This document shows, piece after piece, positions 13,628 through 44,200 of a stretch of DNA of 64,000 bases. The DNA lies in NCBI RefSeq assembly GCF_002113885.1, contig NW_018480076.1:1277603-1341602 (forward strand), in the 5' to 3' direction. The translations under genes and the position numbers were made by a program. The stretch is from Mizuhopecten yessoensis (Eukaryota). A model generated the notes under the pieces. The model was not told the origin of the DNA, made no database searches, and saw only the letters and a list, made by a program, of their open reading frames with translations. Each line of letters opens with the position of its first letter. Position 1 is the stretch's first letter.

Positions 13628-13862
13628 GGGTTCGGGTGGTGCAGTGGATAGCGCACTTGCCTTTCACCAAGGCGGCCAGGGTTCGATTCTCCGATCGGAC
13701 GTGACAAGGCTGGGGTCACCTGCCCGACAACGTGGGTTTTCTCCGGGTACTCCGGTTTCCTCCCACACCAAGACCCCTCACGGGCACACAACCGGGCCAA
13801 CAAGAGTGATTAATATAAGTTGAAATAACTTCATAATTGTTGTAAAATAAATAAAGTTTAAA
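13628..13862 (+). mobile_element. tRNA-derived V-domain SINE, copy 2
   Basis: GGGTGGTGCAGTGG...GGTTCGATTC head; GTGGGTTTTCTCCGGGTACTCCGGTTTCCTCCCACA core; AATAAATAAAGTTT tail; no TSD seen. Confidence 0.88.
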
Positions 13863-14429
13863 TTTATATGTAAACATTTGGCAAGTCAACATAGAAGTCA
13901 ACAATATATGAGAATACTTCCGGTGTAGTGATAACATAATCAACTAGACTGCATCCTCGGTCATTCGCGAAAGTTAACGATCTTATACCCGCGTCTTTTC
14001 CTACCCTACCATTCAATATACGTAAACCAGAAGACTTACAGAAATCAATTAACTTCAAACCATTGCTATTAACTATACCCTTATCAAGTGAATACCGCTT
14101 ACCCATACTGTCCTCTACGTATTCGTCATCTATAGGTATAAAGTAACTTATATCACTTTAAACGAAGTCAGATAACTCCTTTGTTCTAGCGTTCATGTCA
14201 CCTGTAATTATAAAATCACAAGTGTCTTCCTCGTCATTAACAATATCAATTAATATGTTATGTAAGCGGTCAATAGTATCAACATCTAAAAAAGCCCGTC
14301 TTCTGGTATTTTCAGGTAAAACATAGCACAAAACGAGATATACATTTCTTTCAAAACCAATGAAAGTTTTTTTTTCCATTTTCAACACAATTATATCGTC
14401 GGCATCTTTAACAACTAATTCAATAGTGG

Positions 14430-18499: not shown

Positions 18500-21400
18500 T
18501 ATCCAATTGACAAAGGGTATAAATAGAAAAACAGAGAATTCATCGAATCTTCCCGACCTACACTAGCGTCACCATTACAGAGTAAGTTTACATCAATAAC
18601 GACATCATACCATGCTAGATCTGTATATAATATTTTACGCAAGTTCTGATATAGAGGACAAAAAAGTAAAAAATGATAAGGATGTTCACAGGGATGCCCA
18701 CATCGACACTCTGCTGAATCTATTAAGTTGGCTATACACATATCATAGTTGAGTGGGCATGCTTGGTTTCTTAGACGACAGTGAAGAATATTTAATTTCC
18801 TAGATCCATAGTTACAAAATTTCTTACTTAAATTACTGTTCACTAACAAGCACTTTTAACATTTGACTTGAACGAATTTAATGAGGGTGAATTTCTGATA
18901 TCGTTATTCAGGTTGTTCCAAAGATTCGTTGCAGAGGGAAAGAAATAATTGTTTGGCGAGTGTAAACAAAACTGTTGTTCTCGCAGCAGGTGAGCTCCTC
19001 GTAAATCATATGGGACTATATTTCCACCATAATCTGGCAACAAGTCAATAAGAAAAGTTGGTGCCATGTTGTTAACAATAGAATAAAATAGAGAAAGTTT
19101 CCGAGCATCTCCCTTTTTGCAAGGGGTAACCAGCCAGTTTCCTGATATAAAAAATCTTTTTCGTGTAAATGGGCAATCCAGTGACGATTCTAGCAGCTTC
19201 TAGTGGAATTTTTCCAGTGTTACGGAGTTAGTTTCACCGCAGTTGCCCCAAACCTCACATGCATATTCAAGAAGTAGTCTAATATAGATTAGAAATAACT
19301 TCTCTAAGTTGTTCCTTTTTAAGATGGGTTTGAGCTTACGAAGAGTTGCATAATATTTTGTTATTTTACTAACTATATGCAATCAACATGAGAGTTCCAT
19401 TTAAAGTCGTTAGAAATAATAACACCTAAGTGTTTATGTTGGTTAGTAATATTGATGGGGGACCACCAAAGTTAAACGATGGAACAAATGGAAGCTGCAG
19501 ATTTGATATGATAAGCCGGGCCTCAGTTTTGATGGGGTTGAAAGACATCATCCACTCTTTGGACCCAACTTCAGATCAGATCTTGCTTCTAATTCTATAA
19601 GGTTCAGGTCACGAGAGGAGTAAGAAAGAGATGTATCGTCCGCGAAAAGTCTGGACAAAGAGAAGAGTTCGCATGAAATATCATTTATATACATTAAGAA
19701 AAATAAAGGCCCGAGAACTGAACCTTGAGGTACACCAGCGTTGGTGGAGGTGAATGAAGAAAGTGCACCTTAAATAAAAACTGCTTGCTTTCTATCAGAA
19801 AGATAGCTACTGATCCAAAGAAGAAGTTGACCTGAAATGCCTTCTCCAATTTGTGTAGAAGACCTTTATGCCACACACGATCAAATGCCACAGAATATTA
19901 GAATAGTGTGCTCAAATCTTTCCAAAGAAGAAATTATTGAGTGATAGAGTTCAATGAGCTGATGAGTGGTAGAATGATTAGGTAAGATTCCTGACTGATA
20001 TTTATAAATATGATCATTTTCAATTAAATAATTATACATGTGTTTATAAACCACACGCTTGAATAGCCTCCCCAAACAGCTTAGCAGTGAAATAGGTCTG
20101 TAGTTTGAAGAAATACTTGCATCATTAGCTTTAAATACAGGCATGACATGAGTAATTTTCCAGCCATCAGGATATTGTGGGCAACACCATCAGGGCCTGT
20201 TGCTTTATTTGTATCAAGTATATTTATAATGTCTTCAATTTCACTAGGTAACACATTTATTTCACATAAAGCAAAATTAGTACGTCTCTCAAAAAAAGGT
20301 AGATCTTTATCAATGTCATTTTCAGATAATGTACATACAGAGCTAAAATAGTTGTTAAATAATTCACATTTACTGGCATTATCATATATAATTTCATTTG
20401 TAGTGGGATCCAGGAGTGGAGATATATCTGAGTGTTTATTACCTTTCAGAATGTTACGTCAAAGTTTCCAGTATGCCTTGGTGCTGTTATTACTTCTGTC
20501 AATGACTGAATCAATGTTTTCATAAAATATTTCTTTAGCTCTCTTTATCATGTCATTTACTTTGTTTCTCATGTGTTTAAATTTTACTTTTGTTGGACTC
20601 TGTATTGTTATTAAACATGATCTTTTTTAGTCCATCTCTTTTTCTAATGCTACTTCTTAAGATTCCATTCATCCATGGCTTGTCACCCTCTCAAACTAAG
20701 ATTTCTTTGTATGGTATACATTTCATGACAGCCTCGACGAATTTATCAGTAAAATATTTACACATTTCATTGACATCTGTTAAGTTATTAAGATCATCAA
20801 TCCAAGGAAGATTGTTAATCATCACTTTTAGTTCGTCAATGTTGCATTGATCATATAACTATATATTTTTTAAATATTTATAGTGATGATTAACTTAAAC
20901 AGGGATATTTATAATAGCAAAAACTGCATCATGGTCACTGATAGAGCGTTCAATTTCAATAACATCAGAAAAAGTTACATTTACAGTATCGCTTACAATA
21001 ATAGGATCAAGAAGTGAAGATGAGTTATCGGTTTGTCTTGTAGGTTCTGTTAATACATCTGTTAACTTATAATAAGAGAGAATAACACGAAGATCGCCTC
21101 TAATAGTTTTGAGAAAGTCTACATTCAAGTCACCTGTGCTTATTAAATTTGGAGTTTCTTCAAATGCAATATCTTCGAATGACGCAGATGGTGCCATAGA
21201 ACAGTATTATTAAGGGAGGGGGGTCTATAAATATTACAAACTAAATAAAGTGAATCTTTAAATTTGATCTGTGACCAAACAGTTTCATCATTTCCGATTT
21301 CCAAGTCAGTTCTTCGCTTAGCAAAGAAAAATTCAGAGATATAATTTGCAACACCCCCGCCAAACATATTTCTACCTTTGCGAAACGGTTCAGAGAAGCC

Positions 21401-22340
21401 ATCAATGGCGGGTTCGGAATTTGATATAGAATTATCTAAATGTGTTTCAGTTAAGCATAGGATGTCAACATCCTCTGTTATAGTACAGAACTATTTAACT
21501 TTATTTTGTAAGCTCCGAATGTTTAAATGGACTATGCTAAGAGCACTGATTGTAGAACTGCTATCGGGATTGGGCCCTGGATTTGGGTGTATATCACCAG
21601 CTAAAAACAAAATAATTATAGCTGAATTAAATGGGTTGAGCATGTAATGGGACAACTGCAGTAATAAAAAAACAGACCTGGTGGAGATCTGAAATGGGAG
21701 AAAAATGATTTAAAACCTTTGAAGTAGTTATGAATAAAAACTAAGGTGACTTGGTATACACGATGATTTACAATAGAAACATCCTACGGCATCCCTCCAG
21801 GCACATACATCATTTCCCATCATGGAGAGTCAAAAGTAAAAAATACAAAATATTGCTGGAGGTCTGTCAACTTTCTATGAGATGGAAAAACATGAGGCGG
21901 GGTGAGAAATTGAACAGGACAATGAGAGATTTAATAAGGGGAGAAGTAGAGTGATGATAAAATGAAGGACCCTATACTTATTGGTAAGGAGACAAGAGAG
22001 AGAAAAATGGACAGTTGGATATATAGGAAAAGCAAGAGGGGAAATGGGAGAAGATAAAGTATGTCAAAGGATATAAAAAAGGACATGATTTGGGTGGGAG
22101 CGGGGAACAATCATTCAGAAGTGTTAGTAGAGAGTAATCACATAGTGAGTGGGTAGATGATTATGGCTATAAATAGATATACAAAAACTAACCATATTAA
22201 AAAACCCAGGTGTTATAAGAATACAGGATTGCCATGTGACCTGTTGATCAAAGAAATAAACCATGTAATACAAGATTAAAAGGCCTTGTTTACGTATACA
22301 TGACTTTAGTAGAATAATATAGAGATACATGCACACGCAC
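18500..22340 (-). mobile_element. CR1-clade LINE with a multiply frameshifted endonuclease/RT ORF; 3' end truncated, 5' boundary uncertain
   Basis: LAGDIHPNPGP (~21590), LCLTETHL, GDLN, NYRPISLLS, AFDRVWHKGL, GVPQGSVLGP (~19720), FADD (~19640), and C-terminal CRCG...HFLLFCPLY. Confidence 0.92.
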
Positions 22341-23388: not shown

Positions 23389-23460
23389 AAACTCCGGCGG
23401 GATTCGAACCCGCTATCCCCGGGTTATGAGGCCGGTTCGAATCCAATAGGCCACGGACGC
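23389..23460 (-). pseudogene. tRNA-Arg-derived pseudogene, anticodon now CAT
   Basis: Many substitutions and a disrupted D arm relative to the array consensus. Confidence 0.8.
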
Positions 23461-23625: not shown

Positions 23626-23698
23626 AACCTCCGGCGGGACTCGAACCCGCAATCCCCGGCTTAGGAGGCCGGTGCCTTATCCATTGGGCCACGGAGGC
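23626..23698 (-). tRNA. trnaR-CCU: tRNA-Arg (anticodon CCT)
   Basis: GCCTCCGTGGCCCAATGGATAAGGCACCGGCCTCCTAAGCCGGGGATTGCGGGTTCGAGTCCCGCCGGAGGTT folds as a full cloverleaf; T6 terminator just downstream. Confidence 0.97.
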
Positions 23699-25046
23699 AC
23701 GTGTTCAAAGTCTTCTGTGAAATCATCTATCGGATATCCTTCTGGTTATTTCACTCCACTTTGGGATACAAGAAACTTCGAGCAACTGATTAGCGAAACC
23801 TCCAATGTTGTCAATGATATTAGTAAACAGGTGAACAATTCCGACACCGAATAAAATCGTCATCGTTTATCATCAAAAATATTAACTTACAATTAGTATC
23901 GTGTAAGGTATAGACAACGAGAGAAACATTACACAAGACTTCTTGCCATTGATGCGCCATATAAATATGTGGACTCTGTAGGGAGGTCAAGTCCAGCATG
24001 CAGTCATACAAATGTAATGTCTTTGTTCACTCCTCAAAGAGACGACAATACATTCATGGATATCGACCTGACAATAAATAGTCCAACCGAATACAAGGTT
24101 ACGTTTGAAGAGGTTATGGAAAATCTGAAGACGTCCCTCTCTATATATTACGAACTTGACAGGAGGATTTTACTGAAAGAGTTGCGATGATATTTGGTAA
24201 ACAGCTTAGAGACTTTATAAAATAATTCAGGATGTGACACAAGTTCGACAAACGCTACAACGGCTGAACCTTCAGCATGTTCTTGCTCTACCTACCCTTA
24301 CAAATATTGTCCAGCTTGAAATGGCTTGCACTTTATTGCTTGCAAGTAATCCCGTCTTATAACACTTTACTATTATTCGATATTTCATAGTAAGTATGTT
24401 TCCCTTTACATTATGTTGTAAAAAGTAGATATAACTTCAGTTGATTTGGCGTTGAAGGCGCTCCGGTTCTTTGTAGAGAAACCATTCGGTGTCCATCATG
24501 TTCAAACCACACTGTATCCGCCTCCTCTCTCTGTATTACGAAAATTACAAGAGGATTTTACTAAAGGAGTTTCTGATGGTATTTGGTAAACAGCTTGGAG
24601 ACTTAATAAAAGTATTGAGGATGTGGCACAAATTCGACAAACGCTACAAGATGTATATGAAGATGAGCTTTGAATAAGAGAGAGAAACATGCTAAATGTA
24701 TTCTGAGATACTCGACTCATCAAGGGATCTTCAAATCATGTAGGTTATTTAATTATAATTATTTATAAATGAGACAATATGGTTTTACGGACATGCAAGT
24801 AATACCGACTATTAAAACTAAAGTATTATTATATATTTCGCGCTTACAACCGGGACAACAAGAGTGATAAGTAGAAGTTGATACCTTGTTTCAATATTGT
24901 TGTGAAAGAAATAAAGTTTACATTAAAAAAAAAACAAGTTTTTCTATCCTTCGTATTGCAAAACTGAATTTGTTCCAATTGAATTGGTGTTGAATGTCTG
25001 TATAGACGTTCTCCGCCTCTGCTTATAACACCACCAGAAAAATAAT

Positions 25047-25119
25047 AACCTCCGGCGGGACTCGAACCCGCAATCCCCGGCTTAGGAGGCCGGTGCCTTA
25101 CCCATTGGGCCACGGAGGC
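25047..25119 (-). tRNA. trnaR-CCU: tRNA-Arg (CCT), A20G variant
   Basis: One D-loop substitution at 25101. Confidence 0.9.
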
Positions 25120-25953
25120 ACATGGTCGGTGTTTTCTGTGAAATATACTCCTCTTTGGTAAGGTTATTAAGAAACTTTAAGCCACTTCATCAGTTCATTG
25201 CAAAGTTTCCCGTGTTGTCAATGGTATGGAGTATGATATATATGGTATGGGATATGCTGGTAAACTGAATGGCAATTACAACACGGAATGAAATAATCAT
25301 TGGGTGACTACCGTGTTTGAACCACACTGTATTCTCTTTCCGTCCCAGCATTCCGAACATTTCCACAGGATTCTATCAAAGAGTTCCGATGTGGTGAGAT
25401 TTGGTAACAAGCTTGGAGACTTCTTACTATTGGTGCGTCATATGGATGTGGGGCTCTGTAGGAAGATCAAGACCAGCATGCAGTCATACAAATGTGATGT
25501 CTTTGTTCACTCCTCAAAGAGACGACAATACATTCATGGATATCGACATTACAATAGTCAATCCAAATAAAATGTTACGTTTGAAGACGTTCCTCTCTCT
25601 ATATTACGAACATGACAGGAGGATTTTACTGAAAGAGTTCCGATGATATTTTCTAAACAGCTTAGAGACTTAATAAAATAATTGAGGATGTGACACAAGT
25701 TCACAACGGCTGAACCTTCAGCATGTTCTTGCTCTACCCACCCTTACAAATATTGTCCAGCTTGAAATGGCTTGCACTTTATTGACTTGAAAGTAATCCC
25801 GTCTAATAACACTTTACTATTATTCGATATTTCATAGTAAGTATGTTTCCCTTTACATTATGTTGTAAAAAGTAGCTATAACTTCAGTTGATTTGGCGTT
25901 GAAGGCGCTCTGGTTCTTCGCCTCCGCTAACAAATCCATGACAAAAATATAAT

Positions 25954-26026
25954 AACATCCGGCGGGACTCGAACCCGCAATGCCCGGCTTAGGAGGCCGG
26001 TGCCTTATCCATTGGGCCACGGAGCC
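25954..26026 (-). pseudogene. tRNA-Arg (CCT), probable pseudogene
   Basis: Three substitutions, two of which break acceptor-stem pairs 2-71 and 3-70. Confidence 0.75.
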
Positions 26027-27007
26027 ACGTGTTCAACGTCTTCTGTGAAATCATCTATCGGATATCCTTCTGGTTATTTCACTCCACTTTGGGATACAAG
26101 AAACTTCGAGCAACTGAATAGCGAAACGTCCAATGTTGTCAATGATATTAGTAAACAGGTGAACAATCCGACACCGAATAAAATCGTCATCGTTTATCAT
26201 CAAAAATATTAACTTACAATTAGTATCGTGTAAGGTATAGACAACGAGAGAAACATTACACAAGACTTCTTGCCATTGATGCGCCATATAAATATGTGGA
26301 CTCTGTAGGAAGGTCAAGTCCAGCATGTCTTTGTTCACTCCTCAAAGAGACGACAATACATTCATTGATATCGACCTTACAACAAATAGTCCAACCGAAT
26401 ACAAGGTTACATTTGGAGAGGTTATGGTAAATCTAGAGAAACCATTCGGTGTCCATCATGTTCAAACCACACTGTATCCGCCTCCTCTCTCTGTATAACG
26501 AACATTACAAGAGGATTTTACTAAAGGAGTTTCTGATGATATTTGGTAAACAGCTTGGAGACTTAATAAAAGTATTGAGGATGTGGCACAAATTCGACAA
26601 ACGCTACAAGATGTATATGAACATGAGCTTTGAATAAGAGAGAGAAACATGCTAAATGTATTCTGAGATACTCGACTCATCAAGGGATCCTCAAATCATG
26701 TAGGTTATTTAATTATAATTATTTATAAATGAGACAATATGGTTTTACGGACATGCAAGTAATACCGAATATTGAAACTAAAGTATTATTATATATTTCA
26801 CGCTTACAACCGGGACAACCAGTGTGATAAGTAGAAGTTGATACCTTGTTTCAATATTGTTGTGAAAAAAATATAGTTTACATTAAAAAAAACACTACGT
26901 TTTTCTATCCTTCGTATTGCAAAACTGAATTAGTTCCAATTGAATTGGTGTTGAATGTCTGTATAGACGTTCTTCACGTCTGCTTATAACACCACCAGAA
27001 AAATAAT

Positions 27008-27080
27008 AACCTCCGGCGGGACTCGAACCCGCAATCCCCGTCTTAGGAGGCCGGTGCCTTATCCATTGGGCCACGGAGGC
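27008..27080 (-). tRNA. trnaR-CCU: tRNA-Arg (CCT), anticodon-stem mismatch variant
   Basis: One substitution at 27041 giving a G30-A40 mismatch. Confidence 0.85.
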
Positions 27081-28121
27081 ACATGGTCGGTGTTTTCTGG
27101 GAAATATACTCCTCTTTGGTAAGGTTATTAAGAAACTTTAAGCCACTTCATCAGTTCATTGCAAAGTTTCCCGTGTTGTCTATGGTATGGAGTATGGTAT
27201 ATATGGTATGGTATATGCTAGTAAACAGAATGGCAATTACAACACGGAATGAAATAATCATTGGGTGACTCCCGTGTTTGAACCACACTGTATTCTCTTT
27301 CCGTCCCAGTATTCCGAACAATTCCACAGGATTCTATCCAAGAGTTCCGATGTGGTGAGATTTGGTAACAAGCTTGGAGACTTCTTACTATTGGTGCGTC
27401 ATATGGATGTGGGGCTCTGTAGGAAGATCAAGTCCAGCATGTCTTTGTTCACTCCTCAAAGAGACGACAATACATTCATGGATATCGACCTTACAATAAA
27501 TAGTCCAACCGAATACAAGGTTACGTTTGAAGAGGTTATGGAAAATCTAGAGAAACCATTCGGTGTCCATCATGTTCAAACCACACTGTATCCGCCTCCT
27601 CTCTCTGTATAACGAACATTACAAGAGGATTTTACTAAAGGAGTTTCTGATGATATTTGGTAAACAGCTTGGAGACTTAATAAAAGTATTGAGGATGTGG
27701 CACAAATTCGACAAACGCTACAAGATGTATATGAACATGAGCTTTGAATAAGAGAGAGAAACATGCTAAATGTATTCTGAGATACTCGACTCATCAAGGG
27801 ATCCTCAAATCATGTAGAATATTTAATTATAATTATTTATAAATGAGACAATATGGTTTTACGGACATGCAAGTAATACCGAATATTGAAACTAAAGTAT
27901 TATTATATAATTCACGCTTACAACCGGGACAACCAGTGTGATAAGTAGAAGTTGATACCTTGTTTCAATATTGTTGTGAAAAAAATAAAGTTTACATTAA
28001 AAAAAACACTACGTTTTTCTATCCTTCGTATTGCAAAACTGAATTAGTTCCAATTGAATTGGTGTTGAATGTCTGTATAGACGTTCTTCACGTCTGCTTA
28101 TAACACCACCAGAAAAATAAT

Positions 28122-28194
28122 AACCTCCGGCGGGACTCGAACCCGCAATCCCCGGCTTAGGAGGCCGGTGCCTTATCCATTGGGCCACGGAGGC
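28122..28194 (-). tRNA. trnaR-CCU: tRNA-Arg (CCT)
   Basis: Identical to the consensus; T5 terminator. Confidence 0.97.
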
Positions 28195-29038
28195 ACATGG
28201 TCGGTGTTTTCTGGGAAATATACTCCTCTTTGGTAAGGTTATTAAGAAACTTTAAGCCACTTCATCAGTTCATTGCAAAGTTTCCCGTGTTGTCTATGGT
28301 ATGGAGTATGATATATATGGTATGGTATATGCTGGTAAACAGAATGGCAATTACAACACGGAATGAAATAATCATTGGGTGACTACCGTGTTTGAACCAC
28401 ACTGTATTCTCTTTCCGTCCCAGTATTCCGAACATTTCCACAGGATTCTATCAAAGAGTTCCGATGTGGTGAGATTTGGTAACAAGCTTGGAGACTTCTT
28501 ACTATTGGTGCGTCATATGGATGTGGGGCTCTGTAGGAAGATCAAGACCAGCATGCAGTCATACAAATGTGATGTCTTTGTTCACTCCTCAAAGAGACGA
28601 CAATACATTCATGGATATCGACATTACAATAGTCAATCCAAATATAATGTTACGTTTGAAGACGTTCCTCTCTCTATATTACGAACATGACAAGAGGATT
28701 TTACTGAAACAGTTCCGATGATATTTTCTAAACAGCTTAGAGACTTAATAAAATAATTGAGGATGTGACACAAGTTCGACAAACGCTACAACGACTGAAC
28801 CTTCAGCATGTTCTTGCTCTACCTTCCCTTACAAATATTTTCCAGCAGGAAATGACTTGCACTTTATTGACTTGCAAGTAATCCCGTCTAATAACACTTT
28901 ACTATTATTCGATATTTCATAGTAAGTATGTTTCCCTTTACATTATGTTGTAAAAATTAGATATAACTTCAGTTGATTTGGCGTTGAAGGCGCTCTGGTT
29001 CTTCGCCTCCGCTAACAAATCCAGGACAGAAATATAAT

Positions 29039-29111
29039 AACCTCCGGCGGGACTCGAACCCGCAATCCCCGGCTTAGGAGGCCGGTGCCTTATCCATTGG
29101 GCCACGGAGGC
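29039..29111 (-). tRNA. trnaR-CCU: tRNA-Arg (CCT)
   Basis: Identical to the consensus. Confidence 0.97.
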
Positions 29112-29929
29112 ACATGGTCGATGTTTCCTGAGAAATATACTACTCTTTGGTAAGGTTATTAAGAAACTTTAAGCCACTTCATCAGTTTATTGCAAAGTTT
29201 CCCGTGTTGTCAATGGTATGGAGTATGATATATATGGTATGGAATATGCTGGTAAACAGAATGGCAATTACAACACGGAATGAAATAAGCATTGGGTGAC
29301 TACCGTGTTTGAACCACACTGTATTCTCTTTCCGTCCCAGTATTCCGAACATTTCCACAGGATTCTATCAAAGAGTTCCGATGTGGTGAGATTTGGTAAC
29401 AAGCTTGGAGACTTCTTACTATTGGTGCGTCATATGGATGTGGGGCTCTGTAGGGAGATCAAGACCAGCATGCAGTCATACAAATATGATGTCTTTGTTC
29501 ACTCCTCAAAGAGACGACAATACATTCATGGATATCGACATTACAATAGTCAATCCAAATATAATGTTACGTTTGAAGACGTTCCTCTCTCTATATTACG
29601 AACATGACAGGAGGATTTTACTGAAAGAGTTCCGATGATATTTCTAAACAGCTTAGAGACTTAATAAAATAATTGAGTATGTTACACAAGTTCGACAAAC
29701 GCTACAACGGCTGAACCTTCAGCATGTTCTTGCTCTACCTACCCTTACAAATATTGTCCAGCTTGAAATGGCTTGCACTTTATTGACTTGAAAGTAATCC
29801 CGTCTAATAACACTTTACTATTATTCGATATTTCATGGTAAGTATGTTTCCCTTTACATTATGTTGTAAAAAGTAGATATAACTTCAGTTGATTCGCCTC
29901 CGCTAACAAATCCATGACAAAAATATAAT

Positions 29930-30002
29930 AACCTCCGGCGGGACTCGAACCCGCAATCCCCGGCTTAGGAGGCCGGTGCCTTATCCATTGGGCCACGGAG
30001 CC
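29930..30002 (-). tRNA. trnaR-CCU: tRNA-Arg (CCT), C2G variant
   Basis: One acceptor-stem mismatch, shared with the 25954 copy. Confidence 0.85.
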
Positions 30003-31003
30003 ACGTGTTCAACGTCTTCTGTGAAATCATCTATCGGATATCCTTCTGGTTATTACTCTCCACTTTGGGATACAAGAAACTTCGAGCAACTGAATAGCGA
30101 AACGTCCAATGTTGTCAATGATATTAGTAAACAGGTGAACAATCCGACACCGAATAAAATCGTCATCGTTTATCATCAAAAATATTAACTTACAATTAGT
30201 ATCGTGTAAGGTATAGACAACGACAGAAACATTACACAAGACTTCTTGCCATTGATGCGCCATATGAATATGTGGACTCTGTAGGAAGGTCAAGTCCAGC
30301 ATGCAGTCATACAAATGTAATTCCTTGGTTCACTCCTCAAAGAGACGACAATACATTCATGGATATCGACCTTACAATAAATAGTCCAACCGAATACAAG
30401 GTTACGTTTGAAGAGGTTATGGAAAATCTAGAGAAACCATTCGGTGTCCATCATGATCAAACCACACTGTATCCGCCTCCTCTCTCTGTATTACGAACAT
30501 TACAAGAGGATTTTAATAAAGGAGGTTCTGATGGTATTTGGTAAACAGCTTGGAGACTTAATAAAAGTATTGAGGATGTGGCACAAACTCGACAAACGCT
30601 ACAAAATGTATATGAAGATGAGCTTTGAATAAGAGAGAGAGAAACATGCTAAATGTATTCTGAGATACTCGACTCATCAAGGGATCCTCAAATCATGTAG
30701 GTTATTTAATTATAATTATTTATAAATAAGACAATATGTTTTACGGACATGCAAGTAATACCGACTATTGAAACTAAAGTATTATTATATATTTCACGCT
30801 TACAACCGGGACAACAAGAGTGATAAGTAGAAGTTGATACCTTGTTTCAATATTGTTGTGAAAGAAATAAAGTTTACATTAATAAAAACACAAAGTTTTT
30901 CTATCCTTCGTATTGCAAAACTGAATTAGTTCCAATTGAATTGGTGTTGAATGTCTGTATAGACGTTCTCCGCGTCTGCTTATAAAACCACCAGAAAAAT
31001 AAT

Positions 31004-31076
31004 AACCTCCGGCGGGACTCGAACCCGCAATCCCCGGCTTAGGAGGCCGGTGCCTTATCCATTGGGCCACGGAGGC
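31004..31076 (-). tRNA. trnaR-CCU: tRNA-Arg (CCT)
   Basis: Identical to the consensus; T5 terminator. Confidence 0.97.
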
Positions 31077-32192
31077 ACATGGTCGGTATTTTTTGGGAAA
31101 TATACTTCTCTTTGGTAAGGTTATTAAGAAACTTTAAGCCACTTCATCAGTTCATTGCAAAGTTTCCCGTGTTGTCAATGGTATGGAGTATGATATATAT
31201 GGTATGGTATATGCTGGTAAACAGAATGGCAATTACAACACGGAATGAAATAATCATTGGGTGACTACCGTGTTTGAACCACACTGTATTTTCTTTCCGT
31301 CCCAGTATTCCGAACATTTCCACAGGATTCTATCAAAGAGTTCCGATGTGGTGAGATTTGGTCAACAAGATTGGAGACTTCATAAAAGTATTAAGGATTT
31401 GGCACAAATTCGACAAACGCTACAAGACTTCTCACCATTGGTGCGTCATATAGATGTGAAGCTCTGTAGGAAGATCAAGACCAGCATGCAGTCATACAAA
31501 TGTGATGTCTTTGTTCACTCCTCAAAGAGACAACAATACATTCATGGATATCGACCTTACAATAGTCCATTCAAATATAATGTTACGTTTAAAGACGTTC
31601 CTCTTTCTATATTACGAACATGACAGGAGGGTTTTACTAAAATAGTTCCGATGAGATTTGATAAACAACTTAGAGACTTAATAAAATAATTGAGGATGTG
31701 GCACAAGTTCGACAAACGCTACAAGAGCTGAATGAAGATGAGCTTTGAATAACTCCTTTTTCGGCATGTATTGCTCTACAACCCCAGACAGCTATTGTCC
31801 AGCTTGACATATAGAAACTGGCGACCTAAATATCACCTATAATGCATAGCTACGAGAGCCTATTTTAAAGCATTTATCTTACGATTTAAGTGTTATTGTC
31901 GAGAGTGCAACTCTTCTGTAATGGTTCTGAAAGAAATGCCCAGATGAGCGGTTGTTGCCAAACACAGGATAATGTAAAATGGTGAATTTCCGTGATATTG
32001 GTCAAGTCCACTGTTTATTTTGTAGCATTAAATGTGAAGTTCGTGGTCTTTAAGCAATACCTGTAAGCAATACCGCCAGTTAACACTTTATTAGTACTGT
32101 GTATTTCATAGCGAGTATGTTTCTCTTTACATTGTATTGTGAAAAAAAAAAATGTTATTCGCGTCAACTTTCAAAGCCGCAATGGAAAATTA

Positions 32193-32258
32193 AACCTCCT
32201 GCGGGACTCGAATCCCCGGCTTAGGAGGCCGGTGCCTTATCCATTGGGCCACGGAAGC
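32193..32258 (-). pseudogene. tRNA-Arg (CCT) pseudogene
   Basis: 7-nt deletion removing the 5' side of the T stem, plus acceptor-stem changes. Confidence 0.9.
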
Positions 32259-32837
32259 TCATGTTCAAAGCATTTTGGGATAATCTACTTACTTAAGTTC
32301 CTGTTATATGCTCTACTCTCAACTTTTCGGAAGGATAAAAGAAACTTTGAACCATTGAATTGTAAAACCAGCAATGTTGTCTGTGACATTTAGTAATATT
32401 GGTAAGCCGAAGGATAATTACGACACCAAATGAATGGTCATGACTCGGCAGAAACAATCAAACTTTTCTTCTTTCCTGACTATTTTATTCCGTCTATGGC
32501 AATCCGTATTTAGAGAAAATTCAGCACCCAACCAATAATATTACATAAGTTGAAGTAGTCAACGAGTGGAATTTGACGGAAGACTTCTTGCCAATGCTGC
32601 GCCATACCATATGGATGTGTGGACTGGGAAGGAAGGTCAAGTACAGCATGCAGTCATACTAAATTAATGTGTTTGTTCATTCCTCCCAACGCAGCCAATG
32701 TACATAGACATTACAATAGACCAAATGTCTAGGGAAACCATTCGGTGTCCATCATGTTCAAACCACGCTCTAATTCCTCTCTCTGTATTACGAATATTAC
32801 AAGAGGATTTTACTAAAGGAGTTCCTGAAGATATTTG

Positions 32838-33932
32838 CAGGCGCGTAGCTAGCTCCTTTACCATGTGTAAGCCCCGACATGGGCTTGCCGAAGGCAGCCC
32901 CCACCCCCCACCCACCCCCGAAGCGCGAAGCGCGAGCAGGGGGAAGGTACTGGAGGGGTCTTCCCCTCCCGTAAGGAGGGTATGGCGGGTCTCCCCCATG
33001 AACATTTTGTTTTCTAGAACGTCTCAGGAGCCATTTCCCACGTCCTGATGTCTGAGATAATGATATGTTGTAAACTATAATATAGTTTTAAAAAAGGGAC
33101 CGGGGCAAACACGGCCCCTTTTCTTTTTTTAAGACGTTATGGAAGGCATGTTCTATACTGTTGAAATGCATATTTATATATGTCATTTAGAAAAGAAATG
33201 TATTGTCTTTCATAAACTAATAACCAAATCGTAAACAAGACCATATTTTGGGAATTATTGGACTTTTTAGGTCGATAGAGTTAGGGGCCGGACGAGCCCC
33301 GCCCTGAGGCAATCCGGCCCCTACCAGGGCAAGTATGGCATGCAGGATAGAGAAGACAATTTACTAATAAGTGTATGGAATTTCATTCAAATCTGTTGGA
33401 AAATAAGTCCAGAACAAATCAGTGAATACAAAGAAAAAAAAACTTAATTTTTGCGACGTAAAAATATTATTTTTGTGGTCAACTAGGTGACGTTATCAAT
33501 AGTGACGTCACTTGGCACAATAACAGTTGCATTCGGGGTGGCCGAATGTGCCCCGGCAAAAGGGGCCGAACGTGCCCCAAATTGATATTTTCATAAAACA
33601 AAACAAAAAACATATATTGATTGTCTGTGTCCACTGTGCCATACTCGGAGTCGTTTGCGCCGGGCGTGAGTTTCTGAATTTACTCAATCGAGCAGTTTAG
33701 TTCCGCCTGGAACTGTCCATTAATGCAATGGACATTTCTAAACTTCATACATTTTTGTACTAACTATTAACAATGTATCATATCTGAGGAATTACATATG
33801 TATACTATATATTAAAAACTTAAACTCCACTTTATAGTATCAGCAAGAAAAAAAACCGTCATGAAAACCTATACTTGTCAAAATCATGTGCAAAGCCCGG
33901 GCTTATTGGCTTACATGGTAGCTACGCGCCTG
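32838..33932. mobile_element. Non-autonomous TIR DNA transposon (1095 bp) with a 5-bp TSD, inserted in a tRNA-array spacer
   Basis: TIR CAGGCGCGTAGCTA / TAGCTACGCGCCTG; TSD ATTTG at 32833-32837 and 33933-33937; spacer homology resumes on both sides. Confidence 0.9.
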
Positions 33933-34341
33933 ATTTGGAATCTATCTTGAGTCCTCATAAAAGTATTGAAGATGTAGCAAACATTCGGCAAAGGCTACAA
34001 TAACTTCCGGTATAGGAACTGTCGATCTGAATGTGAAGCTTCTATTGTTATGGAAAGTGCAAAACTTTTTGAACGTTTAGGAAATGTTAAGCCTGTTGGG
34101 CAGGTGTTGCGAAACGCAAGCTAATATAATATTATGGATTTTCGTGATATTGGACCAGTCCACTGTTTATTTTGAGGTAAAGTTGTGAAGTCTGGGGTCG
34201 TATATATCTGCATATAATACCTACTATGAAAACTTTATCATTATTATATATTACGTTGTAAATATATAAATTCTATTGTGAAACAAAAATAAATCAAATG
34301 TAAAATTGGTGATCCGCTTCCGCCCAACACAAAAATATGAT

Positions 34342-34414
34342 AACCTCCGGCGGGACTCGAACCCGCAATCCCCGGCTTAGGAGGCCGGTGCCTTATCCAT
34401 TGGGCCACGGAGGC
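34342..34414 (-). tRNA. trnaR-CCU: tRNA-Arg (CCT)
   Basis: Identical to the consensus; T5 terminator. Confidence 0.97.
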
Positions 34415-35348
34415 ACATGTCTATGATTTCTGGATATTAAACTCTGTCAAGTGATTTTACAATCATGTAAGGGTACTACTTTCTTGTAGTAATACCCTAC
34501 TTGATAAGGGGTAATCCACTTTTGGTGAAGATACAAGAAAACCATTGAATTGCAAAACACTAATGTTGTCAATTATATTCAGTGTGTTGTTTAATGTTTA
34601 GTAAACAGAAGGATAATTACGACACCGAATAAAATAGTCATCGTTCGGTAGATTTTTTTTTACATAAACATATTTCATCCTTCCTGACTATTTTATTTTA
34701 TCTATGACAATCCATATTTAAAAGAAAATTCATCATCCAACATATAACCCTACATATATTAATTACGAACCCCGCGAGGTAGACAACGATAGGAACATTA
34801 ACACAAGTCTGCTTGTCATTCATGCGCCGTAACAATATGTGGGGCTCTGTAGGAAGGTCAAGTTCAGCATGCAGTCATACAATGTAATGTCTTTGTTCAC
34901 TCCTCAAAGAGACGACAATACATTCATGGATATCGACCTTACAATAGTCCAACCGAACACAAGGCTACGTTTGAAGACGTTATGGAAACTCTAGAGAAAT
35001 CATTGGATGTCCACTATGCTCAAACCACACTGTATCTGATTCACGAACATAACCAGAGGATTTTCCTAAAAGAGTTTCTGATGACATTTGGTAAACAGCT
35101 TGGAGTTAAAATTGTGGAATTTTGTGATATTGGACCTAACCACTGTTTATTTTAAAGGAATGTTGTGATGGCTGTGGTTATATAGATCTGCATATTATTA
35201 TAATAAATACTATGAACACTTTATTATTATTATTATATATTACGTTGTTAATATGTTAACTATACATTCTATTGTGAAACAGAAATAAATTCAATTCAAT
35301 TGGTGATGAATGCATACTAGTTTTAGGTCCCGCTCTACAAAACAAATT

Positions 35349-35421
35349 AACCTCCGGCGGGACTCGAACCCGCAATCCCCGGCTTAGGAGGCCGGTGCCT
35401 TATCCATTGGGCCACGGAGGC
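35349..35421 (-). tRNA. trnaR-CCU: tRNA-Arg (CCT)
   Basis: Identical to the consensus. Confidence 0.97.
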
Positions 35422-36312
35422 ACAATTTTAGACATTTCGGGATATTCAACTCGTCCAGGGATTCCCCAATCATGTAAGGGATTTCCTTCTGGTAGTTACA
35501 CTCTACTTTGGTAAGACTCCAGTCTTGTAAGGAAGCTTTGAACCATTGAATAGCGAAACCTCCAATGTTTGCAATGATACAGAGTGTGCTATCTATGGTT
35601 TAGTAAAAAGGACAATTCCGACACAGAATAAAATAGTCATCGTTCGACAGAAAACAATCAATGTTTATATACACATTTCATCTTATTCTATTCTGTATAT
35701 GACTGTCTGTATTTAAGAGAATTTCTCATCCAAAATATTAACTTACAATTAGTATCGTGTAAGGTATAGACAACGAGAGAAACATTACACAAGACTTCTT
35801 GCCATTGATGCGACATATAAATATTTGGACTCTGTAGGAAGGTCAGGTCCAGCATGCAGTCATACAAATGTCTTTCTTCACTCCCCAAAGAGACGACAAT
35901 GTGGTCATGGAAATCAACATTACAATAGTCCAACCGAATACACTGTTACGTTTGAAGACGTTACATAAATTCTAGAGAAAATATAGGGTATCCACTATGT
36001 TCAAACCACATTCTATCCGCCGTACAGTAACTGTAATGTTTGGGAAATAGAAACTAAGTTGGGCAGGTGTTGCCAAACGCAGACTTATGTAGAACGGTGG
36101 ATTTTCGTCATATTGGACAAGTCCACTGTATAATTTCACAGTAATGTTGCGAACTATGAGGTTTGATTGACCTGCAAGTAATACCGCCTATGAACACCTT
36201 ATGAATACTGTTAATTTATAGTAAGTAGGTTTCCCTTCACAAAGTTTTGTGAACGTGGAAACCATTCTAGAAATTGTGTTTCCGCTTACAAAGCCGTGAC
36301 AAAATAAATAAT

Positions 36313-36385
36313 AACCTCAGGCGGGACTCGAACCCGCAATCCCCGGCTTAGGAGGCCGGTGCCTTATCCATTGGGCCACGGAGGC
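36313..36385 (-). tRNA. trnaR-CCU: tRNA-Arg (CCT), G67T variant
   Basis: One substitution at 36319 giving a C6-U67 mismatch. Confidence 0.87.
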
Positions 36386-38205
36386 ACATACTCACTTCAT
36401 TTAGAATACGCTATTGTTGGTCACATGGACCCGACAATTTGTTACTGATGTTATGTTTGGACCCATCCTGATGTACTAAGGGTAATATTATATAATTTAG
36501 GATGTGAAATTAATTCTCTGTAAATATAACATTCCCAATGATGGTATATATACAAGAGTTGATTGTCTGATATTATTCGTTGCACATCAGGATAGGTTCA
36601 AACATGCCAACTGTAACACATTATCGGGTTCCAGTGCTCTTGGTAATTATACCAGAACCTTTGAACCACTGAATTGCATGCGAATTGCACATTTCGTCTG
36701 CTGGATAACTGAACTATCTGACAGTGAAGCGGACGTAAAAACATTCAAACTAACAAACATTTAATTACAGAACTTCCAATGTTGTAAATATTTGTTGAGT
36801 GTGCTGTCTATGGTTTGATATATGATGATAAACAGGAGGATAATTACGACACCGAATAATAGCCATCGTTCGGCAAAGAAAATCAATGTTTATAGAAACA
36901 TTTCATCCTCCTTTACTATTCTATTGCATCTATGACTGTCTGTATTTTAGAGAAAATTCATTTAACAAATAACCTACACGTGGTGCAACTTACATGGTCA
37001 TGTCATGCCCATGTCGATCGTACATACCTCCCTGAGCTTGAAATCAAGAATAGTTCTACTTGGTCGCTGTCATGATCTTATTAGAATATATTCCATTTCT
37101 TTGATACGGAGGTCGCTGTGTTTTTATTATTAGTTTGTCTTGTTGTTTCGTTGTCAATACTCCATTCTCGCTATACGGTCGTGACATTACTTGGATTTGA
37201 CCTAGATTTATCTGGCATGTGTAGTCGATGAATCACTAGACGCTTACCCTTCCGGAACGCATGTATTATTCTCCTTTTACCCTTTTAAGGATTTCGATGT
37301 AAATCTTTCCTTTGTTCATGTTTGCCCTCGTTTTGTCGTTTTAGATTTAGAACTACAGTTCTGTTAACCCTTTTGTATTCTCTCATTTTTTTCTTTAACA
37401 GGCCAACCGGGTGTACCTGGGGAAACACGGTACAAGAGGGGAGGGACACATTAGTCTCGCCAGAATATAATACATCAGTATACAGCATGATTATTTCAGC
37501 AGGGAATATATTCGGATGTAAAGTATCAAACTGGAAAGACATAATAACATTCAGTTGAAGCGCTAAATTTATGGCCGAAATATGTCACAAAAACATCAAT
37601 TCTAGAAGAAATAAAGCAATGTTTAAATCATTTTAATTCATTCGAGGTTTCTTTTAAATGAATATTGGACAAAATCAACATTGTTTCGAATAAAACAATT
37701 GAATAATAAATGCATTTAACGACATGTGCTATATCCAGTTATACTAATTTACATGTATGTAAGCTGGCAATTACGGTAGTTGATATGACATGATTCTGTA
37801 GTTTCAATAGAAAATACAAAGTGTGTAAAATCAAGTACACAAAATCACATACCATGTACATTAATTTGACATTGATTATATAAGCGTTAACTATTGCAAA
37901 GTATTAAAGATGCTCCCTTCAGGGTAAAGCACCAATGTCGGCCGTCCAACTCGGAACAGCAAAATAGCATTCAATGGGGTAATATACAAAGTCATGAAAG
38001 CAGTGTCAACAGGCATGGCGATTTCATGGGATCATCTTCCAAGCTTGTATTACAAAATATAATTTGTGTGTGGATGAGTTTTGAAGTAGAATGGGAAACG
38101 ACAGGATTTCCTCACAATTATCTCCATATCGCCATACACACAGCCGTATACTGTATTTCAACTAATTAGTCGTATCATTTCTGATCTGTCCACAAGCCTC
38201 AGCTA

Positions 38206-41200: not shown

Positions 41201-44200
41201 TTGATATGCATTTCGAAATTAACAGAGAATTAAGATATTTATAATGAGTTAAGATAAAAACAATAAATTTAAAGATTATCAGTCCCTCATGATGAAAATT
41301 CATTTTAAGTGAATATATTCTTAGTCTATCGTATACTTGTACTTGTTAACAAATATTAATGAAAAGTAAGATAATGACTTACTTTCCATACGATAACCTA
41401 CGACTAGTTATTGTATCAAACGCAATTATGCATAATTTGTAAATCGTAAGCTGTATGTATTGCAGATCATGTGACTTACCTTTCTCCCAGTTCACCGGAA
41501 GTGACGGAGACAGAATGAGCTGACCAAGAGTCCGCTCCAGCAAAAAAGCCGAGGAAACTGGCAGCTTTCTTCGTGTAGCGGAGATCAATACTGTGTATTT
41601 GCCCCACCTCGACAGGCGATGTGATCAGTTTCTGAAGATTGTGACCAGACGTCAGGTCCACATCAGCACTATATAATGAGGACAATCAAACATTATTCAG
41701 AAGGTATAGAGAGTTCTAAAGCATAAGTACGAAGCACTTGGTTGGACTACCTAAGCATGACAACGTTTATGAAGGCAATGCAAGGCTTTGTCAAGGCTCG
41801 TAAAAAAGCAGCATCAGTTTTGACCAGCCGAAAATAGGTACGGCATTATAGGTACCTAGGTCGGGTGGCGCAGTAGAAAGCGCACTTACCTTTCATCAAG
41901 GCGGCCGGGGTTCGATTCCCCGGTCGGACGTGAAAAGGTAAGGGGTCACCTGCCCGATCACGTGGGTTTTCTCCGAGTACTCCAGTTTCCTCCCACATTT
42001 AGACCCTCCGTGCGATAACATCCGAGCCAACAAGAGTGATTAATGTAAGTTGTAAAAACTTGTTTTATAATTGTTGGAAAATAAATGAAGTTTATTTATT
42101 TAGGTACCTAGCTGGAGACTGATGAGTGAAGGAGTTCGTAGACATATATTGTAAATGGGACCACAGTCCTGTATGGTTAAACATATAGGATATATGCTTA
42201 AGGCACCGAGACTAAAGGTAACAACCTGTTTACATCCCCCCAAAATTTCTAGACCAATGTGATCAGAAAAACATATAAATACATAATACATCCTATTTCT
42301 CTGTATATTACGGAACAACATTTATTGTCTTTAAATATTGCATTTTACACATGTCAATCAAAATAAACCATGCGCTATATTGATTAATATTCAATGGGCT
42401 CTTGACTATGAAATTTTCCCGTAGAGTTTGTTAGGTGTTGTAAGTTTATGGACATGCACAGCAAGATGTATATTCAGCTGTGTGTGCTTCTTACCCACAT
42501 TTCTACAAATAACCTCACTGACTCTTCTACAGAGAGATATATTTTTCTCCAGTACTTATTGTCCGCTCCGGTACCTATGACCTGTTCGTTTATGCGGAAC
42601 CATCGGTTTGTCTGTTTTGAAATGTAACATTTTCGGGTATAAATCCTGGAGGACCTGCACATTTTTCTGATGGCCTTGCAAAGCTTTGTCAAAGCTCGCC
42701 TGAAAGCAGCATCAGATTACTAGGTCCGACCTTATTTCGTAAACGAAGAACTCTGGTCCAACCGGTCTAACCGGTTCAACCGTTCGGATAGCGATAAACG
42801 AAAGCGACCCCTGTGTTCGGCTACCGAGCGTGCGTCTGGTTTCACCAAGATGGCGACTTACTCTGTGACGCTGTTCCAACCAGAAGTACCCCACTCTCCA
42901 TTTAATCTCACTGCTACAGTTCCCTTGGAGGTCGCTGAAGAGGCCACTACTACACCGTACTGGAAAGCTGAGGAAAGAAAGTGCTTGTTAAAACTACTCA
43001 TCAAATGCCAGTTACTAGCTACAGGAAGTGAATGTAGTTAAATGTATTTGTATCATACGGATGTAATATATCCATAAGGAATTGTCCTAAGTACCAGGTA
43101 TCGCGAAAATGTCAGATAAACTACCAACAGAGTTAGCTGGGTTTGGTGGTGAGAGCTTTCGTATGTAAATACAAAAGTACCACATCAAATACACGAGGAA
43201 AACAGAAGTACCAGGACGGATTGCAGAGTTTATAACTTTTCCTGGTCACTCTCTATAAAAGGAAACACACAATGCTTTCAACTGACACGTGTCTTTGTTA
43301 TCACGCGGGAAAGTTCATAGTATGCTTGCTATTTTGTTCCATGTTCATTTATCCTTAAGGGCATGTCACACACTACCGATGTACCTCGCCGGGACTATAA
43401 AGCGGAGCAGAGCATTATCAACGGTGAGAAAATCGGCAGAACTACGGCGAGATAGCACTAGAAAAAAAAAAATCAAAATTGACTGTAGCAAAACCGATGT
43501 AGTACCAGCGTTCTCGTTGCGATACCGTTGTTCTACCGTTTTCCTTCCGATGTAAGAGCCGATGTGCTACCGAATACCACTTTTCTGTCGCTAGCACATC
43601 GGAGGCGCATCAGTGTTACTTCGGTGGTATTCGGTAGTACTATGTTATCACATCGGTACCAGTACGGTACACATTGAGGACACGGGAGAGCCGCCGATCC
43701 ATTTCGGGGCGCTACCGGTGCTCTATACCGCCATTACCGAAGACATACCAGAGTACTGCCGTTTCAACCGGATGTTCGCTCCGGCGGTGCAACGCCGAAC
43801 ATTTTTGAGCATGTTCAAAAAGATTCTACCGTCGCCGGCCGTTGCTAAATTGTTCACCAATCTACCGTTCTCTGCGATGTGATATCGTTGGGCTGTCGTA
43901 CTAATACCGGTCCCCGATATCGACTAAACATATATACTCCGCTATAGCTCCGGCGACCCAAATTGGCTAGGTGTGACAGGCTCTTCAGCGTGAGAACCGC
44001 GTCTATGCAGAAAGACATCTCAGAAATGGTCAAGTTAATTGGGTAAAATAGACGTTACTTACCACAAAAGGGGGAGCTGGACTCGGTGTTCAGGTAAAGT
44101 TTTCCTCTTGCGTGGTACTGGTCGGCATAGTAACCCATCTGTGCACATCCCGTACTCCCACAACTCAAACACGCGCCATTCTTGAATTTATCCTTGAACA

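Follow-up and report, generated by a model that had tools for sequence, protein, structure and literature searches.

A tandem array of tRNA-Arg(CCT) genes in Mizuhopecten yessoensis with spacers that derive mostly from a Naiad Penelope-like element

The arginine tRNA array and its units

We analysed a stretch of 64,000 nucleotides of the Mizuhopecten yessoensis genome (NCBI RefSeq assembly GCF_002113885.1, 988 Mb; contig NW_018480076.1, forward strand, positions 1,277,603 to 1,341,602; hereafter “the window”, from whose first letter all positions are counted), which holds a tandem array of arginine tRNA genes separated by spacers that consist for the most part of degenerate 5′ sequence from a Penelope-like retrotransposon of the Naiad clade. 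ARAGORN detects 11 minus-strand tRNA-Arg(CCT) genes between 23389 and 36385. Six of them are identical (23626–23698, 28122–28194, 29039–29111, 31004–31076, 34342–34414 and 35349–35421; the first four are genes 1, 5, 6 and 8), and the same 73 bases are present in six genes on four other contigs. The remaining five carry one change each (gene 2, 25047–25119; gene 4, 27008–27080; gene 7, 29930–30002; and the last gene, 36313–36385), except for gene 3 (25954–26026), which carries three and is likely impaired. The minus strand also holds a pseudogene with a 7-nt deletion (32193–32258) and, at the left end of the array, a decayed tRNA-Arg-like copy (23389–23460) missed by both ARAGORN and Rfam. At gathering score, tRNAs are the sole Rfam matches in the window and in four other loci. 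Contigs of four out of four DNA runs, from four studies, cover positions 31000–37500 and bridge the junctions at 31671–32184 and 36733–37206, so this part of the array is not an assembly artefact.

The spacers are mostly 0.8–1.35 kb long and homologous but rearranged, and their comparison bears out the observation of a first-pass annotation, made by a model from the letters alone, that each has its own indels, stops and deletions. Each unit contains a plus-strand Naiad relic placed head-to-head with the tRNA on its upstream side. The distance from the 5′ end of this tRNA to the first Naiad base, upstream of the gene, is 35–116 nt in 11 of the 12 units and 378 nt in the last. Unit 1 (23764–24639) retains an endonuclease (EN) remnant, a linker, a CxC region and a second linker piece (24473–24639), and unit 2 (25189–25769) a remnant of the GIY-YIG core, a displaced linker duplicate, the linker and CxC. 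They are followed by unit 3 (26092–26598), unit 4 (27150–27712), unit 5 (28264–28860), which has the best GIY-YIG core remnant (28268–28390, 22.9 bits), unit 6 (29183–29770), unit 7 (30037–30593), which gives the strongest protein match, and unit 8 (31146–31870), which extends furthest 3′, through the CxC region and GDLNI to just before GxKY. Unit 9 (32335–32837) is interrupted by an insertion and resumes beyond it at about 33933–34010; units 10 (34530–35105) and 11 (35494–36020) follow, and unit 12 is represented by an EN remnant (36763–36992). Past this last unit, and beyond the interval described by the first-pass annotation, lies a Naiad 3′ end (37048–37412, plus strand), and the junction ahead of it is likewise bridged in all four DNA runs. 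A diverged duplicate of profile positions 770–897 ahead of position 566 (25295–25425; also in units 4, 5, 6 and 8) is an internal rearrangement marking one unit type.

The spacer as a decayed Naiad element

A spacer piece of 491 bases matches about 30 other contigs at 66–80% identity, and two translated spacer pieces matched more genomic loci, with stops in almost all of them. A profile built from 17 natural fragments (stops written as X) finds the database proteins P0001 (E 3e-21) and P0002 (E 9e-14); a search of protein representatives returned 48 matches, of which only P0002 reached E ≤ 1e-10. With P0001 as query, 837 proteins are retrieved at E ≤ 1e-20, the named homologues among them being from Pinctada. 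In the reverse direction, intact homologues match the array by tblastn with E values as low as 9e-21 (unit 7), and a Naiad DNA profile built from 18 dispersed copies accounts for 7,004 of the 11,823 spacer bases (about 59%, the insertion in unit 9 excluded). Together, the tblastn and DNA profile results place a plus-strand protein-coding origin of the spacers beyond chance, as the first-pass annotation had proposed in reading them as a fossil protein-coding sequence amplified with tRNA-Arg. The intact homologues it named as a check do exist in the protein databases, and the element it could assign to no family can be placed through P0001 and its 837 relatives.

This placement is in the Naiad clade, whose diagnostics are the CxC, GxKF/Y and DKA motifs together with an N-terminal GIY-YIG and a C-terminal reverse transcriptase (RT) domain (Craig et al, 2021; PMC8557442), because the homologues show GIY-YIG, CxC, GPKY/FRE and DKA. 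PF01541 is N-terminal in four of the seven full-length homologues scanned, above cut-off in three, PF00078 (RT) is C-terminal in six, below the curated cut-off in all, and CxC, GPKY/FRE and DKA were each found in seven out of seven. The array is collinear with these proteins: EN remnants open the units (22.9 bits at best, where a reversed control scores 5.0), the linker and CxC region follow, with ACSCS region matches at 25700, 28791, 29698 and 31772, and the relic ends just before GxKY, upstream of the RT, so that GxKF/Y and the DKG-to-DKA change are seen in the homologues only. Of the Naiad CX2-5CxxC finger upstream of the EN and the CCHH motif, the finger is present in four of the seven homologues, and CxxC within the GIY-YIG core in six; the window copies begin 3′ of the finger, and the cysteines in them have decayed. 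By its testable features the spacer element is thus a Naiad, placed to the clade and not to a named consensus family.

Several searches were negative. None of 10 window fragments matched Pfam, a GIY-YIG fragment used as query retrieved only itself, and no intact genomic copy occurs among 93 P0001 matches from 80 of 2,912 candidates, nearly all of which contain stops, the others being short. No hammerhead ribozyme was found at Rfam gathering score in the window and four loci, which is weak evidence given the age of the copies. The (TA)n tract stated as the Naiad target bias (PMC8557442) is absent at the Naiad 3′ end near 37412, where the ends have decayed. A minus-strand match to the EN profile (23874–24026, 16 bits) has no DNA-level support and was set aside.

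The protein frame stitched together in the first-pass annotation is ancestral from RRQYIHGYRP through EKPFGVHHV to DVAQIR, whereas its starting pieces and LLFRHVLLYNP are not. Against a profile of intact proteins, the VDNERNITQDFL, SMQSYKCNVFVHSSK and LLFRHVLLYNP frames score −4.0, −1.1 and −2.6 bits, and the same DNA read in the RQREKHYT and CSTTPDSYCPA frames scores 18.5 and 17.8 bits; the former are therefore shifted frames. The overlapping SIMFKPHCIRLL frame, too, is this Naiad DNA read out of frame. QTLQELNEDEL stands in the ancestral frame but past a deletion of about 220 nt. Of the proposed ancestral unit, an intronless open reading frame (ORF) convergent with one tRNA gene, the single tRNA and the single fossil intronless coding sequence hold; the two are convergent only with respect to the tRNA of the next unit.

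The last part of the stitched frame, SIVMESAKL/DFRDIGQVHCLF, falls outside the ORF. It belongs to a segment named here after its DFRDIG translation (31871–32192, with homologues near 34040–34340, 35105–35348 and 36020–36312), which is the 3′ flank of the tRNA and carries no evidence of coding. The segment does not match the Naiad profile, all four of its genome matches lie inside the array, none of 10 frames or fragments matched Pfam, and a protein search yielded no homologue among 57 candidates (weak evidence). The first-pass annotation had noted this frame as kept with some synonymous differences; mismatches are even over the codon positions (0.32, 0.30 and 0.29), and its synonymous fraction of 0.17 and its 10 stops in 186 codons are similar to those of other frames. 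One minus-strand frame has a synonymous fraction of 0.34 against 0.17–0.23 in the other five, in a comparison of four related sequences.

Descent, decay and origin of the array

The array copies descend from one Naiad copy. In a tree of 54 rows and 369 columns, from which unit 12 was left out because it does not contain the region, all 11 array copies included fall into a single clade (support 97/94), with unit 9 as its deepest branch. Identity among the Naiad parts of the array ranges from 76 to 99%, and none of them exceeds 77% identity with a dispersed copy. An array-specific deletion of about 220 nt (profile positions 929–1149), the one that precedes QTLQELNEDEL, is absent from all 19 dispersed copies spanning it, and its junction is found at seven places in the array.

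The spacer decays neutrally. Measured against the family profile, five old array lineages show 74 synonymous and 247 non-synonymous changes, a non-synonymous to synonymous ratio (pN/pS) of 0.99, compared with 0.78 for dispersed copies. Stops are rarest in the Naiad frame of the dispersed copies (2.9% versus 3.9% and 8.7% in the other frames), and not in that of the array copies (3.0% versus 2.3% and 8.1%). The array pN/pS and the stop pattern therefore indicate that the copy was already broken when it was amplified and has decayed neutrally since; the spacer would yield no functional protein. The tRNA is nearly invariant while the spacers have diverged, and purifying selection or gene conversion may have maintained the tRNA copies.

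We regard it as highly probable that a Naiad came to lie, by a single chance insertion, on the upstream side of a tRNA-Arg(CCT) gene some 70 nt away, and that the two were then tandemly duplicated as one. The insertion would have occurred by target-primed reverse transcription with 5′ truncation, as established for the family, and the simplest ancestral layout would have been flank, tRNA and Naiad. The first duplication would have had a breakpoint within the Naiad, immediately ahead of the RT, which joined the element to the tRNA 3′ flank and left the Naiad 3′ end in the last unit alone; unequal crossing-over may then have spread the array. As its collinear position suggests, the 3′ end at 37048–37412 probably closes this same insertion, which would since have lost about 2.3 kb to a deletion. 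Penelope-like element ends can themselves seed local tandem repeats (preprint 10.64898/2026.07.22.740005).

Other Naiad copies and repeats were seen in the window and elsewhere in the genome. A separate 5′-truncated Naiad 3′ end lies at 52715–53245 on the minus strand, and in two dispersed relics a part of the coding sequence has expanded into minisatellites, with units from the VEDYARQW region in one (L013:2600–4030) and from the NSPTEY region in the other (L031:2050–4200). The insertion in unit 9 (32838–33932) is a high-copy non-autonomous DNA element of 1,095 bp; its terminal inverted repeats measure 14 bp and its target duplication 5 bp, and loose contig ends are seen at its borders (32838 and 33933) in other individuals. 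A tRNA-headed repeat resembling a short interspersed element (SINE) occurs at 823–1081, 13630–13870 and 41859–42099 and has matches in 20 of 269 loci searched, and 80 nt of the tail of this repeat lie inside three array spacers (24846–24924, 27920–27998 and 30802–30884). On the minus strand at about 19000–21640, inspection by eye suggests a decayed element of the long interspersed (LINE) type, a candidate with an endonuclease-like start near 21540.

Naiad copies and tRNA genes elsewhere, and known systems

The first-pass annotation had also considered an undescribed mobile element that targets or carries tRNA genes. A mobile element it is, of the known Naiad clade; targeting or carriage is not supported. 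None of the 80 dispersed Naiad loci, which total 456 kb with a few overlaps, holds a true tRNA gene or an Arg(CCT) fragment. Their single ARAGORN call, a tRNA-Ser in L013, was rejected as a gene, as it is embedded in EN coding sequence, reaches 38 bits in Rfam and looks SINE-like. Decayed copies of the Naiad family take up about 1% of this genome (1.3% of a random sample of 296 kb, 1.0% of a same-contig sample of 207 kb and 0% of 89 kb around a SINE), so that chance adjacency is common; 267 of 3,931 control sites (6.8%) have a Naiad within 1 kb. The same is true of the tRNAs on three of 33 other contigs (p = 0.39), at varied distance and strand, in a sample of 95 tRNA calls, a few of them SINE-like or decayed, from the Arg, Cys, Lys(TTT), Thr(CGT) and Gln classes. 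Gly(TCC) hits were counted apart from tRNA genes, being a SINE family with a shared tail; 29 of 29 such tRNA-Gly-derived loci are free of Naiad. This young family (L226–L254; 1,655 candidates) has a head that mimics an intact tRNA and will inflate tRNA gene counts in this genome.

Two further arrays show the same process. The tRNA-Arg(CCT) array on contig C4988 (176.4–180.5 kb; L135:5423–9468) has three intact and two partial genes, and its spacers consist of C-terminal and 3′-terminal Naiad sequence that runs antisense to the tRNA, at distances of 40–376 nt. It appears to be independent of the window array: a common origin was rejected, with flank scores at background (mean 26 versus 28) and no homology of the outer flanks. 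Shared derived changes amount to 0.13–0.24, against a background mean of 0.14 and a 95th percentile of 0.23, and a 3′-end tree is star-like and cannot decide their kinship. The tRNA-Cys(GCA) array on contig C3157 (L257:4234–9282) has four identical genes with co-directional Naiad spacers that form a clade of their own. On contig C3547 (L207:752–1794), a Naiad 3′ fragment lies between a decayed inverted tRNA-Arg(TCG) copy, about 100 nt away, and an intact one, with further Naiad 3′ pieces in both orientations.

Several observations weigh against a chance insertion into a single locus, or against parts of its history as given above. The head-to-head layout at less than 300 nt recurs at C4988 and C3547, that is on two of the 33 contigs, against P = 0.005 per control site, and these two insertions look independent. 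Naiad coverage of the tRNA-locus DNA is 2.5%, a value inflated by tandem copies. On the side of identity and descent, PF00078 stays under its curated cut-off in every one of the seven proteins, the tree bootstrap has not converged and unit 12 stands outside the tree, the stops of the array copies are not lowest in the Naiad frame, and the 3′ end at 37048 is tied to the insertion by collinearity only.

The recurrence is what speaks for a Naiad family with a loose preference, in which copies would have entered the open DNA immediately upstream of tRNA genes, perhaps those for tRNA-Arg, pointing away from them as TRE5 does in Dictyostelium; the array would have begun with such an insertion. All three head-to-head cases involve tRNA-Arg, flanks and shared changes indicate their independence, and two more upstream copies on the opposite strand lie about 1.2 kb from a tRNA (C278 and C359). 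Counted by contigs, the recurrence has p = 0.011, or 0.036 once the 29 SINE loci are included; counted by genes it has p = 0.077, and at 500 nt p = 0.03–0.18. The control rests on only 15 hits, and fragment ends need not be junctions. We treat the layout as a weak hint, a lead and not a result. Set against it are the 80 dispersed loci, the lack of an excess within 1 kb or of a fixed distance, the co-directional copies of the tRNA-Cys array, three single Arg(CCT) genes with no Naiad within 2.8 kb, the Naiad-free SINE loci and the (TA)n target given for the clade (PMC8557442). We therefore consider such a preference unlikely, and equally so its extension, in which an ancient Naiad family preferred the upstream side of tRNA(-Arg) genes and its insertions seeded tandem arrays at least twice in this genome. 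If true, the preference would add a GIY-YIG retroelement to the elements that target RNA polymerase III (Pol III) genes, convergent with TRE5 and Ty, and would link retroelement insertion to tRNA gene amplification.

Much less probable still is that the tRNA gene was cargo of a composite element, or that the units are partial tandems made by the reverse transcriptase of the Naiad itself. Partial tandems are on record for Naiads (PMC8557442), and the C4988 unit does read as a Naiad 3′ end followed by flank and tRNA; however, 11 of the 12 window units lack the 3′ end at which reverse transcription starts, the tRNA is antisense, the units have DNA-level deletions in common, and the composite unit occurs nowhere else, neither through its flank nor through an Arg(CCT) fragment in the dispersed loci. 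We give as little credence to a co-option of the spacer for a non-coding role in the cluster, for instance as upstream Pol III elements or for spacing: the relic is retained in 12 of 12 units and in most of them begins some 70 nt upstream of the tRNA gene, but the units have lost different parts and diverge by up to 24%, and identical tRNA-Arg(CCT) genes elsewhere have unrelated flanks. A host-gene retrocopy, an endogenous viral gene or an undescribed element, all raised by the first-pass annotation, is the least credible source of the ORF and is refuted for its main part, which matches Naiad proteins throughout; the DFRDIG flank (about 150–300 nt per unit) alone is still unassigned and has the one minus-strand frame with an elevated synonymous fraction, but it is without homologue in the genome, Pfam and the protein search. 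Chance insertion followed by joint duplication thus remains the explanation that we prefer.

Among known systems, a parallel in layout is provided by TRE5 and NLTR-B of social amoebae, which are also oriented opposite to a tRNA gene and placed upstream of it by tens of nucleotides, but which are L1-clade elements with an APE-type endonuclease and narrow windows of 40–54 and 39–64 bp (PMC5911963). The window element encoded a GIY-YIG endonuclease and not APE, keeps no fixed tRNA distance and has no dispersed copies at tRNA genes, and was not counted as TRE5-type. Dada DNA transposons, too, are tied to multicopy tRNA genes including tRNA-Arg, and differ in inserting inside the gene with a 6–7 bp duplication (PMC8869645). 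The tRNA genes of the array are whole and the homologues of its spacers are EN-RT proteins, and the element was not assigned to Dada either. Dewa, a Tx1-clade LINE without long terminal repeats, has an APE-type endonuclease and tRNA tandem arrays as its target; the spacer contains no APE domain. In the literature searched, in which most subscription papers were out of reach, we found no report of Naiad-derived tRNA-array spacers or of tRNA targeting by Penelope-like elements, and the main text of Craig et al mentions tRNA once, for selenocysteine, and describes no association with tRNA genes (PMC8557442).

With the Naiad clade, which dominates bivalve genomes (PMC8557442), the element shares the order of GIY-YIG, linker, CxC, GxKF/Y, DKA and RT in its intact homologues, the high copy number, the 5′ truncation and the lack of a detected hammerhead ribozyme (PMC8557442). 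As it stands, the finding is an ordinary one, a dead copy of a known and abundant retroelement clade turned into the spacer of a tRNA array, which serves as a natural record: the neutral spacer dates and orders the duplications, and the tRNA stays fixed. What sets the window copies apart from other Naiads is that they are dead fragments without the RT core, amplified locally together with a tRNA gene.

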